DNA from: Candidatus Woesebacteria bacterium
Lineage (GTDB): Bacteria; Patescibacteriota; Microgenomatia; UBA8517
Assembly: GCA_013426185.1 (NCBI GenBank)
Contig: CP058602.1
Span: forward strand, 206,873 to 270,872
Length of the DNA stretch: 64,000 nucleotides
Direction of reading: 5' to 3'
Below, piece after piece: positions 9,859 to 63,222 of the stretch. Both the position numbers and the translations under genes were made by a program. Below the pieces are notes generated by a model. That model made no database searches. It was not told where the DNA came from and was given only the letters and a program-made list of their open reading frames with translations. Each line of letters starts with the position of its first letter. The stretch's first letter is position 1.

Positions 9859-9980
9859 ATTCTCACCCCCTTTCAAATTAAATATAACACAAGACAACTT
9901 AAGCGCAATAGCAAGCGATCACAATCTCTCGTAGAATAATTTATCCGTATACACGAATGCAAGTTGGATAAAAAATTGCG

Positions 9981-61129: not shown

Positions 61130-61744
61130 TCAGGAGAGATATCTGTAAGTAGATTCTTCTAAAGTCTTTCTAACCTCATTCCAGTCAACATCAACCAAAA
61201 ATTCAGGATCGGGTTGTTTTTCTGCTTCTTCAAAATAAACAAGAGATTTTAAAATATGAGACATTTGATAATTTACTCCCTTAAACTTCTTCTCAAAAAG
61301 AGCTAAAAGCTCACCAAGACCGAACTTCTGCAAAATAAAATAAAGATCAATAAAATCTTTTTTGCTTCCTCTTGAGGATATTGCTGAAAGCTTCATACAA
61401 GCAATATCTTCAAGGGAGGCAACCTTAACTTGATCAAATTCAAGAAAATCACCAACCAAAGGATACTTATATTCTAAAAAGCTAACCTTAACATCATCGA
61501 TATATAAATCAAGTGTTCCTTTATCTTGATTAATAACCTTAGGATTAAGGGTTTTAAGTTTGGCCATTAGAATTTCAAACTTAGGAAAAGAAGAGGAAAA
61601 AAAATCAAGATCAATCGATTTTCTGTGCCCCAAAATCAAAGATAAAGCAGTGCCACCTGCAAGATAGAAGTTGTCTAAGACTTGAGTTTCTCTTATTTTT
61701 CTTAAAACCTGTCTTGTCTTTGAATCAATGGCTTTCTCAAACAT
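61130..61744 (-). CDS. Nucleotidyltransferase of the AbiEii/DUF1814 toxin family
   Basis: VLDNFYLAGGTALSLILGHRKSIDLDFF, the characteristic N-terminal NTase motif of AbiEii-type type IV TA toxins. Confidence 0.6.
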   Translation of the reverse strand: MFEKAIDSKTRQVLRKIRETQVLDNFYLAGGTALSLILGHRKSIDLDFFSSSFPKFEILMAKLKTLNPKVINQDKGTLDLYIDDVKVSFLEYKYPLVGDFLEFDQVKVASLEDIACMKLSAISSRGSKKDFIDLYFILQKFGLGELLALFEKKFKGVNYQMSHILKSLVYFEEAEKQPDPEFLVDVDWNEVRKTLEESTYRYLS

Positions 61745-61995
61745 AAAACCTCCTTTCTTGGAACCTTTAAAATTAAAGCATAAAAATTGGCACTTTTAAA
61801 TGACAAGTTACGAGAATTCTTCAAAACATTTTTAATATCTTCAAGAGAATAAAGTTTTTTTAAATCTTCAAAATCACAAACATCACCAAATTCAAGAACC
61901 CTCTCTATGATAAATTCTTTGTTTTTATCCTTTTCTAAAGTGGAAAAATCTATATCCCAGAAAAGTTTCTTGAAATACAAAGGAAGACTACTCAT
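61702..61995 (-). CDS. Small protein upstream of and overlapping the AbiEii-like gene (possible cognate partner/antitoxin)
   Basis: 97 aa, MSSLPLYFKKLFWDIDFSTLEKDKNKEFIIERVLEFGD..., with a 43-nt overlap with the downstream NTase gene. The function is inferred from position only. Confidence 0.3.
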   Translation of the reverse strand: MSSLPLYFKKLFWDIDFSTLEKDKNKEFIIERVLEFGDVCDFEDLKKLYSLEDIKNVLKNSRNLSFKSANFYALILKVPRKEVLCLRKPLIQRQDRF

Positions 61996-62023
61996 TGATG
62001 CTTAATTATACCATTCTCAACTG

Positions 62024-62520
62024 AAAACTTAAAAGTCAAAAGTCAAAAATTAGATTACAGATTACAGAATACAGATTAGAGAATATAGAACAAAATTACA
62101 AATTCCAAATTACCCGCCTGCAAAAGCTATCGCTTTAGCGATTGCGGGCAGGCAAATTACAAATTCCAATATACAAACAAATTACAAGAACCAAATTACA
62201 AACCCATTAAGGAATATGGATTTAGGATTTAGGATTTAGGATTTAGGATTTAGGATTTAGGATTTATGAATTTTTGCTTTCTACTTACTACTTTCTACTT
62301 GCATTCCCTGCGTAATACATAATACAAGATACTAGATACAATCTTTCGGCCGGATTCGACTAGCTTTGACTAAATTCCGATAGCCGATAGCTGATGACTA
62401 ATGTCCGACATCCGACAGCCAATGTCTTATGTCTGATATCCGATAGCTGATGTCCGAAGTCTGATGTCCGACATCCGAGATCCGACCTCTTTTACCTTTT
62501 AACTTTTACCTTTTACCTAC
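62024..62520. repeat. About 500-bp noncoding tract made entirely of consecutive blocks of 7-bp tandem repeats with an embedded GC-rich hairpin
   Basis: Blocks read directly from the sequence: AAAAGTC x2-3; AGATTAC x5 (degenerating); AAATTAC/AAATTCC x3; a hairpin at 62116-62153; AAATTAC-like x about 6; GGATTTA x6.5 (62213-62268); CTACTTN x3; NATACAA-like x4; CCGATAG x2; about 12 units of NNTCCGA/NNTCTGA (62374-62485); CTTTTAC x4 (62486-62520). Confidence 0.85.
62116..62153. other. Imperfect 38-nt hairpin GCCTGC-AAAA-GC-T-ATCGC[TTTA]GCGAT-T-GC-GG-GCAGGC inside the heptamer tract
   Basis: The only GC-rich, non-heptameric segment of the tract. Its apex CGCTTTAGCG is identical to the apex of the 23051 hairpin. 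Confidence 0.5.
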
Positions 62521-62547
62521 CAAACAAAAATTTGTTAAAATCAAGGA

Positions 62548-63222
62548 ATGAGTAAAAGAAAAATATTTATCGTCATTCCAGCTTATAACGAAGCGAAGGT
62601 TATTCATAAAGTTATTTCTGATATCAGAAAAGAGGGATTCAAAAATATAGTTGTGGTTGATGATGGATCAAATGATGATACAAAAAAGGTAGCTTCAAAA
62701 GCAAAGGCTAAAGTTTTAAGTCATTTTATCAACCGAGGAAAAGGAGCGGCTGTTAAAACAGGCCTTGAATACGCAAAATTAGAAAAGGCCGATATCGTGG
62801 TAACTATAGATGGCGACGGTCAGCATAACCCTAAAGATATTAAAAGAATGATCAAAAAAATAGATGAAGGATACGATATCGTTCTTGGTTCACGCTTTCT
62901 TAACAAAAAAAATAAAATGCCTCTTTTCAATAGATTAGCAAACCACCTTGCCAACATCATTGTCTTCCTAACTTACAGTCTCTGGGTTTCAGATTCCCAA
63001 TCAGGATTCAGAGCCTACACAAGAAAAGCTTTAGAAAAAATAGACACAAGGCTTGATAGATATGAATTTGATAGTGAAGTAATAAGAGAAATAGCAAAAC
63101 ATAAAATCAAGTTCTGCGAGACACCAATAGATGTTTTTTACACCCAATACTCAATTTCAAAAACCCAAAAGCAAAGCCTAAAAAATGGAATAAAAACACT
63201 AATAAAAATTCTTATCTCATAG
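62548..63222 (+). CDS. GT2 polyprenyl-phosphate sugar synthase (DPM1/GtrB/ArnC-like)
   Basis: KIFIVIPAYNEAKVIHKVISDI...IVVVDDGSNDDT...TIDGDGQHNP...GSRF, the hallmark motifs of Dol-P/Und-P-hexose synthases. Confidence 0.75.
   Translation: MSKRKIFIVIPAYNEAKVIHKVISDIRKEGFKNIVVVDDGSNDDTKKVASKAKAKVLSHFINRGKGAAVKTGLEYAKLEKADIVVTIDGDGQHNPKDIKRMIKKIDEGYDIVLGSRFLNKKNKMPLFNRLANHLANIIVFLTYSLWVSDSQSGFRAYTRKALEKIDTRLDRYEFDSEVIREIAKHKIKFCETPIDVFYTQYSISKTQKQSLKNGIKTLIKILIS

Follow-up and report, generated by a model that had tools for sequence, protein, structure and literature searches.

A half-kilobase heptamer mosaic in a Candidatus Woesebacteria genome and the dispersed repeat family to which it belongs

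According to Mrazek 2007 (as cited in PMC4679880 and PMC4692102), heptamers are the most abundant long simple repeat in many prokaryotes, and polymerase slippage was proposed in that connection. Short tandemly repeated repetitive sequences (STRR) and mixed heptamer assemblages have been dealt with in Mazel 1990 (as cited in PMC4692102 and PMC4679880), MacGregor 2015 (PMC4679880) and Rehm 2015 (PMC4692102). Mixed heptamers within single spacers occur in Microcystis and in several Bacteroidota, related species may be without them, and contigs break at these places (PMC4679880); the heptamer TAACTGA, studied by MacGregor in the same work, is abundant in Beggiatoaceae, cyanobacteria and some Bacteroidota. 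Heptamers have also been noted beside intervening sequences (IVS) of rRNA genes: in Coxiella burnetii two to three tandem GACAGAT units, variable between strains, precede the start of S23p, and the terminal stem of the element measures 28 bp (PMC4990558). For the Candidate Phyla Radiation (CPR), the literature yielded no paper that deals with heptamer tracts, and the searchable library, itself incomplete, gave no general link between heptamers and the protein family PF05635 beyond the Coxiella note. This work describes such a tract, at positions 62024-62520 of a stretch of 64,000 nucleotides (the window) from the genome of a Candidatus Woesebacteria bacterium (contig CP058602.1, positions 206,873 to 270,872).

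The tract belongs to a dispersed family of mosaic repeats of a CPR lineage whose blocks gain and lose whole units, and it is probable that it acts as nothing but a neutral or selfish spacer lying between two putative promoters. Its kinship with cassettes that carry PF05635 genes is the most promising lead to come from the comparison.

Period-7 structure and strain variation

Self-match of the tract reaches 0.588 at lag 7, 0.522 at lag 14 and 0.458 at lag 21, other lags giving 0.22-0.31, and it is the sole stretch of the window in which 70-nt windows reach at least 60% match at any lag from 2 to 15. Adjacent heptamers identical at 6/7 or more positions cover 66% of it, as against 1.8% in shuffled sequences (maximum 10%) and 2.8% in other 497-nt windows. 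The units run head to tail, as in STRR, and no open reading frame (ORF) of at least 40 aa is found among them. Tandem Repeats Finder (TRF) recovers the heptamer units listed in an earlier description made from the DNA letters alone (the sequence-only reading), whose claim of a period-7 tract is supported by these three measures. The parts of the tract, from left to right, are given below; matches refer to related metagenome loci, which are described further on and numbered, like all comparison sequences, with the prefix L.

62024..62051, plus strand: left terminal array AAAACTT AAAAGTC AAAAGTC AAAAATT (TRF); matches in 17-25 other loci
62052..62092, plus strand: AGATTAC/AGAATAC array (TRF), polymorphic by one unit; AGATTAT versions at the same composite position in L022, L030, L041 and L047
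62093..62112, plus strand: AAATTAC/AAATTCC array, with CAAATTA as last unit at 62106-62112 (TRF, register analysis)
62113..62152, plus strand: GC-rich hairpin element of type A, 40 nt, with CAAATTA on both sides (fold, family copies)
62153..62205, plus strand: CAAATTA/AAATTCC/AATATAC array with a 4-nt shift at about 62175 (TRF, registers); matches in up to 35 of 42 loci
62218..62266, plus strand: perfect array of seven GGATTTA units (TRF, 7.0 copies, 100%), polymorphic by three units
62277..62300, plus strand: CTTTCTA/CTTACTA array (TRF), polymorphic by two units; module in about 30 loci
62301..62345, plus strand: conserved non-periodic module GCATTCCCTGCGTAATACATAATAC..ATACAATC, found in L022, L030, L041 and L047; matches in 16-31 loci; 88% identity over 51 nt with L001 17264-17314
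62376..62486, plus strand: degenerate NNTCCGA/NNGCTGA array, made of 16 units and showing a higher-order period of 28 nt (TRF period 28, score 102); CCGATAG/TCCGA modules also in L030, L041 and L047
62487..62520, plus strand: right terminal array CTTTTAC CTTTTAA CTTTTAC CTTTTAC CTAC (TRF)

The tract is less uniform than had been described. Non-periodic stretches at 62170-62216, 62270-62276, 62303-62310 and 62342-62375 contradict the statements that essentially every nucleotide belongs to a repeat and that the hairpin is the sole non-heptameric insert, and the GGATTTA block, counted before as six perfect copies, has seven. The 71 consecutive heptamers without a phase slip turn out to be mere arithmetic (497/7), as the copies of AAATTMC stand in register 3,3,3 before the hairpin, 1,1 after it and 5,5 beyond the 4-nt insertion. 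The change across the hairpin is due to its length, 40 nt being 5 modulo 7. Register is kept inside single blocks, and the 13 TCCGA-type units share a common one.

An artefact of assembly or cloning is hardly credible as the source of the tract. Five short-read contigs do stop inside it or at its edge, which would suit such an origin, but contig L001, from the Joint Genome Institute (JGI) metagenomes and from another sample, spans it completely, and the suspicion of an assembly chimera can be laid aside. Furthermore, four independent Logan contigs (L002-L005), which end inside the tract, reproduce its left 58 nt exactly and its right 228 nt with one single-nucleotide difference (L004 and L005 stop in the AGATTAC array), and mosaics homologous to it turn up in about twelve metagenome data sets.

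Comparison of these sequences reveals how the tract varies. L004 and L005 represent the same strain as the window (99.9-100% identity), whereas L001 is 98.6% identical to it over 11.5 kb, with 115 substitutions and three gaps only. All three gaps fall within the tract and consist of whole units: L001 is shorter by 7 bp in the AGATTAC array, by 21 bp in the GGATTTA array and by 14 bp in the CTTTCTA/CTTACTA array. Block copy numbers thus vary between strains, a point that the sequence-only reading had put forward for checking, and the tract is a slippage-prone locus. Gaps of 7 bp were found in the tracts of other close locus pairs too; the census of gap lengths was restricted to close pairs, as the repeat alignments of diverged pairs yield many gaps of 1-2 nt. 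Because most length changes are multiples of 7, period 7 can survive without selection. A different kind of change is seen in L006, a more distant strain, where coding DNA is 98.1% identical to that of the window while the 119 nt upstream, equal in length and made of other heptamers, are only 70.6% identical; this looks like module replacement rather than point mutation.

The genes on both sides of the tract are those that had been described, namely a toxin-antitoxin (TA) pair on the minus strand and a family 2 glycosyltransferase (GT2) on the plus strand, and the gap between them is indeed unusually long (552 bp, the median intergenic gap being 5 nt).

61130-61744, minus strand: AbiEii toxin (Pfam PF08843, 1.6e-19), in an operon with DUF6922 (61130..61995)
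61702-61995, minus strand: DUF6922 antitoxin (Pfam PF21956, 6.8e-17)
62005..62013, minus strand: putative extended -10 box TGGTATAAT, 9 nt before the antitoxin ATG (read from sequence)
62533..62541, plus strand: putative extended -10 box TGTTAAAAT, 6 nt before the GT2 ATG (promoter scan)
62548..63222, plus strand: GT2 glycosyltransferase (PF00535, 3.4e-30)

Among genomes taken as one per species from GTDB, the nearest relatives of this GT2 are in Ca. Woesebacteria Ch104a (66%), a Patescibacteria metagenome-assembled genome (55%) and a Ca. Roizmanbacteria (51%), which, as far as one gene can tell, places the organism among CPR bacteria of the Microgenomates type. In Ch104a (L007) the pair of DUF6922 and AbiEii, with protein identities of 70% and 75%, also faces GT2, across a spacer of 54 bp that contains no tract. 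The box TGGTATAAT is kept in L007 as well as in L006, and TGATAAAAT stands in L007 at the same place before GT2, so that TGnTAAAAT is found 6 nt before the GT2 ATG in both genomes. The two boxes of Ch104a lie at 9960-9968 and 9986-9994 of L007, the one of the antitoxin 13 nt before its ATG; they are 17 bp apart, against 519 bp, filled by the tract, in the window. The promoter scan reads the GT2 promoter as TTTACC, an 18-nt spacer and TAAAAT with TG, the last unit of the tract supplying the -35-like TTTACC. No matches to the repeat family occur at 61996-62009 or 62528-62547, and on the left they begin within the bin 62010-62023.

The two extended -10 boxes are best taken as the core promoters of the antitoxin operon and of GT2. 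The position of TGnTAnAAT, 6-9 nt before the ATG, points to transcripts that are leaderless, or nearly so, and lack a Shine-Dalgarno sequence. As Ch104a keeps the gene pair and both boxes without the tract, the latter appears to be dispensable to either gene, and is probably a lineage-specific addition upstream of both promoters that neither gene needs. The ordinary 54-bp spacer of Ch104a is also the outcome that the sequence-only reading had itself named as weakening the view that period 7 is kept for a function.

Whole-unit differences at three blocks between near-identical strains would also suit a contingency (phase-variation) locus, in which gain and loss of heptamers shift the geometry of upstream elements and so switch or tune the TA operon or the GT2 and glycan genes. 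Repeat number differing between close strains (here by 7, 14 and 21 bp) is proper to such loci, for which a surface-glycan locus is a typical setting; the tract abuts both putative promoters, the -35-like TTTACC of GT2 being part of it; and there are precedents in the 7-bp repeats of hmw in H. influenzae (PMC12721329) and the TTTTGAT heptads of ctxAB in V. cholerae (bioRxiv 10.1101/2021.05.14.444153). However, the variable blocks are located ~40-310 bp from the nearer putative -10 box, and not between -35 and -10 elements, in a leader or in a reading frame; the -10 boxes and the start-codon distance are kept in the tract-free relative; and the same modules are found in convergent intergenic regions and beside housekeeping genes. 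A contingency role is, on balance, quite unlikely. Regarding the multi-site switch for the flanking glycan and TA genes once proposed, the varying unit number stands, but the tract-free locus of Ch104a and the recurrence of the blocks at unrelated loci speak against the switch itself. Ownership of the tract by the TA module was rejected too: the module exists without it, and no other locus with the composite carries those genes.

The dispersed family and its GC-rich hairpin

Comparison loci were obtained by scanning JGI metagenomes for the 3' flank of the hairpin, for which ~1 chance match was expected (author's estimate); gene calls in them are simple ORF calls. The flank motif was found in 42 metagenome loci, and 53 copies are counted with L001, L002 and the window. 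In these 42 loci, 88 intergenic regions bear tracts (median length 468 bp), and every block of 62020-62525 has matches in non-orthologous loci, in up to 35 of the 42. The composite as a whole, consisting of the A4 array, AGATTAY, AAATTMC, hairpin A, CAAATNN, GRATTTA, CCGATAG/TCCGA, CTTTTAC and CATTYYCTGCRTAATACATAATAC, in that order, recurs in L022, L030, L041 and L047 with the order of its modules partly permuted and beside genes unrelated to those of the window. In addition, a paralogous tract 7 kb away (L001 17010-17450) has in common with the tract a hairpin followed by GGGCAGGCAAATT and the 51-nt non-periodic module, and just beyond the window another five or six period-7 tracts follow within 11 kb of the L001 contig.

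The gene pairs around the tract-bearing regions are co-directional in 32 cases, divergent in 15 and convergent in 12, and the neighbours represent about 100 protein families, among them GT2, pilins, DnaB, GroES and tRNA ligases. With unrelated neighbours in all orientations, the family is therefore better understood as a dispersed selfish or neutral element than as a locus-specific regulatory device. Like STRR, it is non-coding and dispersed at many loci. The resemblance of GGATTTA to a telomeric unit is a coincidence, and a telomere-like nature was discarded, as this unit and its complement forms TAAATCC/TAAATTC are ordinary members of the family vocabulary.

Two strains differ in gene content: at the margin of a mosaic tract, L002 (8476-9003) carries one bAvd-like four-helix-bundle gene more than L001 (17009-17200), and the hairpin-plus-array module adjoining this gene is inverted. 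The tracts are therefore sites of rearrangement within the glycan locus.

The hairpin at 62113-62152 has a perfect 7-nt direct repeat, CAAATTA, on both sides and a predicted RNA fold of -22.1 kcal/mol (z = -3.9; the DNA fold was computed too). A regular expression for the core retrieved 64 copies belonging to types A-D; 24 are of type A, 22 with this core and two with a variant one. The family thus comprises hairpins of 39-40 nt in at least four types, with fold z from -2.1 to -4.5. Types A, C and D have a common outer stem, CCYGCCYGCA...TGCRGGCRGG, and an inner 5-bp stem that covaries across them (AAAGC/GCTTT, TCAGC/GCTGA and GATGC/GCATC). Copies are always seated between two like heptamers, and their orientation relative to the neighbouring genes is unbiased (24/23 and 28/28). 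Two differences in the presence of a type-C hairpin were found between orthologous loci (L047 5967-6005 against L041, and L027 7598-7636 against L055). Both amount to 46 nt (39+7), which fits either an insertion that duplicated 7 bp or a deletion from one flanking repeat to the other. A tandem pair of two hairpin types is present at L046 13147-13225.

Being repeated, imperfectly palindromic (within 20-40 nt), intergenic and found in both orientations, the hairpin is, as far as sequence and fold can tell, similar to the repetitive extragenic palindromic (REP) elements and bacterial interspersed mosaic elements (BIME). In the 118 flanking proteins, the Y1 transposase associated with such elements (RAYT) was not among the 25 families listed of 103. 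A viral origin was dropped, the hairpin motif having no match in IMG/VR. A role as terminator or leader was rejected because of the random orientation relative to genes; a terminator scan found none, and the hairpin lacks a U-run.

Repeated short motifs together with a stable hairpin could also point to a structured or sponge non-coding RNA, in which GGA or UCGGA repeats would titrate an RNA-binding protein. Nevertheless, the tract is placed upstream of both conserved putative core promoters and would be transcribed from neither; the GT2 promoter is the only promoter-like site in the scan, where 2.8 were expected; neither the family copies nor the hairpins favour one strand with respect to genes; and the relative does without the tract. 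Rfam searches, at gathering score for the whole window and at E<=1 for the tract, gave four tRNAs elsewhere and three chance-level matches, and none for the tract itself. The sponge idea of the sequence-only reading finds no support in these data, and an RNA function is regarded as very improbable.

According to the explanation preferred here, that of a neutral or selfish member of the mosaic family, the element would consist of short heptamer arrays and a 40-nt REP-like hairpin, closed by imperfectly inverted terminal arrays (of AAAAGTC type on the left and CTTTTAC type on the right), and would have been inserted or built up between back-to-back core promoters, which are 17 bp apart in the related genome. 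Its blocks would not be local inventions but would stem, through descent and recombination, from other family members. Perfect blocks would then gain or lose whole units by slipped-strand mispairing, and length changes in multiples of 7 would keep the register of each block with no selection for period 7. The hairpin would be a separate small insertion between two like heptamers, and the whole tract would contribute nothing that either gene demonstrably needs.

Several points weigh against this explanation. Retrieval of the 42 loci by the hairpin motif makes this type of tract over-represented among them, and the copy-number differences were read from metagenome assemblies, not from reads. Insertion as a unit lacks a clean empty site in a close relative, as the sole empty site is that of Ch104a, at 66-75% protein identity; moreover, the ends of the tract show no target duplication, and neither a transposase nor another mobilising enzyme came to light. 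The family occurs once in the 64 kb of the window but five or six times in the next 11 kb, and this clustering in the glycan locus could reflect a function. Substitution divergence is 2.7% in the alignable segments of tracts, the same as in the flanking, mostly coding DNA, and this equality could reflect constraint or homogenisation. Finally, the explanation leaves the unit length of 7 unexplained.

Related to the surroundings of the tract, the window contains genes for IleRS, GlyRS, GatA, FtsA and a penicillin-binding protein (PBP) as well as four tRNAs, and is therefore chromosomal DNA. Minus-strand genes dominate it between 14000 and 62000 (~48 kb), where the plus strand has uniformly negative GC skew and positive AT skew. 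A replication origin at the switch of gene orientation was considered and finds no support, as only ~2.3 kb of plus-strand genes follow before the minus strand resumes. The glycan locus, at about 50-62 kb and beyond, includes repeated GT2-GT4-PMT_2 sets that resemble segmental duplications.

Terminal arrays and four-helix-bundle cassettes

The ends of the tract are inverted with respect to each other: 62024-62048 and 62490-62514 are 80% complementary over 25 nt and could form a stem, as the termini of S23p elements do, although a weaker one than that of cassette L065. Both ends are of array types that are associated with PF05635 genes, whose products bear the annotation 'four helix bundle protein' and go under the further names S23p, 23S_rRNA_IVP and Avd-like. 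The left array agrees in type with the 5' array of the cassettes L061/L065, which carry a CPR four-helix-bundle gene, and the right one with the 3' array behind the four-helix-bundle gene in L022/L026/L039; the GGATTTA unit type recurs in the array that precedes the bAvd-like gene of L002/L033. Of the ten small PF05635 genes found in this genome and its relatives, nine lie 0-48 nt from period-7 arrays, and in the tenth (L033) heptamers stand before the ATG, below the threshold of the scan. PF05635 genes with heptamer flanks are found, for example, in L061-L070, at L001 15596-16177 and at L022 8005-8422.

In other CPR genomes, a 5' array of AAAAGTC/AAAACTC type runs into the ATG of the PF05635 gene, and a 3' array of TTTTGAC/TTTTAAG type runs into the ATG of the following gene. 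Two of these cassettes, L065 3973-4435 (Ca. Roizmanbacteria, GCA_016181745) and L068 3978-4432, are located within operons, and their insertion sites are between the genes for ATP synthase delta and alpha and before the one for DNA polymerase III delta'. In the predicted cassette RNA the two arrays pair around the ORF, as in rRNA intervening sequences. No PF05635 homologue was found anywhere in the window, and the tract has no such ORF. From the identity of its array types, it can best be taken as an ORF-less shell or relic of the PF05635 cassette class to which other arrays have been added. The CPR four-helix-bundle protein has 978 homologues, and for many of them the sole source is a contig of 0.5-3 kb, as expected if repeat flanks routinely break short-read assemblies.

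The same arrangement is found outside the CPR. A tblastn search of plasmids with the CPR protein gave 32 records, mostly cyanobacterial, and eight genes were picked across the ranking, from Dolichospermum, two Nostoc, Planktothrix, Gloeocapsa, Euhalothece, Bernardetia and Treponema. Tandem heptamers adjoin the gene in all eight (in three of them on one side only by the strict array criterion), and the upstream and downstream arrays are reverse complements in seven, having the same direction in Treponema. The sequence of the unit differs from copy to copy and the period is always 7. As a control, 50 kb of Nostoc punctiforme pNPUN02 contain only two period-7 arrays, both flanking the PF05635 gene. 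In Chlorohelix, Azospirillum, Monoglobus and Chondrinema the flanks are degenerate, and lag 7 gives the highest self-match in 8/8 arms; the PF05635 gene of Azospirillum lies inside a 23S rRNA gene, and is therefore a classical intervening sequence. The records with heptamer-flanked genes are L071-L078, L079 and L080-L083. In the plasmid of Chondrinema litorale (L083 1334-1447), the heptamers flanking the four-helix-bundle gene are of the TAACTGA type. Altogether, heptamer-periodic flanks of PF05635 genes are present in CPR, Cyanobacteriota, Bacteroidota, Spirochaetota, Chloroflexota, Bacillota and Pseudomonadota, and in the majority of copies the two arrays are inverted relative to each other.

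The fact that period-7 flanks accompany PF05635 genes in every genome examined, with a unit sequence that varies while the period is kept, as if spacing outweighed sequence, might indicate an array for a protein that reads units of 7 bp or 7 nt. The candidates would be an Avd-like four-helix-bundle protein or an omega-type ribbon-helix-helix one, and the array would serve as a sink, a nucleoid anchor or an insulator between the promoters. The omega repressor of plasmid pSM19035, which binds contiguous 7-bp heptads of consensus WATCACW upstream of a toxin-antitoxin operon, is an example of such reading. However, the tract includes at least nine different units, which one sequence-specific protein cannot all read; it is devoid of a PF05635 gene of its own; and the tract-free relative keeps the same genes. 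An omega-type heptad operator, which would require two or more contiguous WATCACW heptads, was rejected in particular, as neither strand has a match to this consensus. A binding array of this kind is thus unlikely.

A broader proposal is that the heptamer arrays known as STRR in cyanobacteria, those of TAACTGA type and the CPR tract are all terminal arrays or relics of one widespread class of selfish cassettes, with an Avd-like S23p/PF05635 cargo, which would be the same element as the 23S rRNA intervening sequence. The protein, or the manner in which the element moves, would set the 7-nt period, and the tract of the window would be an ORF-less, multiply nested relic. This proposal is tentative and rather doubtful as it stands. 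If it were true, the over-representation of heptamers among the long simple repeats of some phyla would have an explanation.

Comparison with known systems

The closest parallel to the tract is found in the STRR of cyanobacteria, Bacteroidota, Beggiatoaceae and Xanthomonas. In both cases 7-nt arrays are intergenic, with several units per spacer; they vary in length and sequence between close strains, related species may have short repeat-free spacers at the same site, contigs break within them, and no function has been established for either. On the other hand, the host of the tract is a streamlined, Woesebacteria-related member of the CPR and not a cyanobacterium; its units are AT-rich (AAAAGTC, AAATTAC, GGATTTA, NNTCCGA) and do not include CCCCAGT, TTGGTCA or CAACAGT; and a whole mosaic of 0.5 kb recurs as a composite with terminal inverted arrays. 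In genomes as compact as this one, with a median gap of 5 nt, fillers of half a kilobase stand out, and they mark glycan and pilin regions that are hypervariable; they also break short-read assemblies, as illustrated by the five independent contigs that end in the tract.

The 23S rRNA IVS with an S23p ORF, as in Coxiella (PMC4990558), resembles the tract in its complementary ends and, in Coxiella, in tandem heptamers of strain-variable number, there placed before the ORF. Array types of the tract ends bracket PF05635 genes in this lineage, and the 23S IVS of Azospirillum, with an ORF of this kind, has heptamer-periodic arms. Through the flanks of PF05635 genes in seven phyla, the over-representation of heptamers becomes linked with S23p intervening sequences. 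Nevertheless, the tract has no PF05635 ORF, is located between protein-coding genes and not in an rRNA helix, is probably untranscribed, and contains other arrays in its interior.

The hairpin finds its counterpart in the REP/BIME elements and REPINs of enterobacteria and pseudomonads (PMC3116915), which are dispersed GC-rich imperfect palindromes that occur in mosaics and in either orientation, with presence/absence differences between strains. They differ in that the hairpins described here lie inside heptamer arrays with 7-nt repeats, and that tens of copies have been found so far, not hundreds. The hairpins may also be likened to the small dispersed repeats of Nostoc that Elhai reportedly described in 2008. 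With terminal inverted repeats (25 nt, 80%), no ORF, a length of ~500 bp (below 600) and multiple copies of the composite, the tract has in addition several features of a miniature inverted-repeat transposable element (MITE).

Units of 7 bp in strain-variable number are also situated upstream of genes in the simple sequence repeats (SSR) of hmw (PMC12721329) and the heptads of ctxAB (bioRxiv 10.1101/2021.05.14.444153), and TTTTGAC, which is AAAAGTC read on the minus strand, is one base from the TTTTGAT of ctxAB. In these systems, however, a single unit type makes up a single array, which occupies a defined regulatory site and whose effect on expression has been measured, whereas the tract has about nine unit types over 500 bp and modules at unrelated loci. 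The omega operators of pSM19035 share with the tract the contiguous 7-bp units upstream of a TA operon, and demonstrate that a protein can read steps of 7 bp; they differ from it in that WATCACW is absent from the tract, the units of the latter are heterogeneous, and the same TA operon is tract-free in a relative.

This comparison gives an odd sequence a concrete identity, unit-step slippage being a simple reason for the survival of period 7, and shows that the Candidate Phyla Radiation, too, has STRR-like heptamer arrays and REP-like hairpins. The tract is the same kind of object as the known mixed heptamer assemblages, in a new phylum; what is added here is the recurrence of the entire mosaic as a composite, its REP-like hairpin and its inverted ends of the cassette type.

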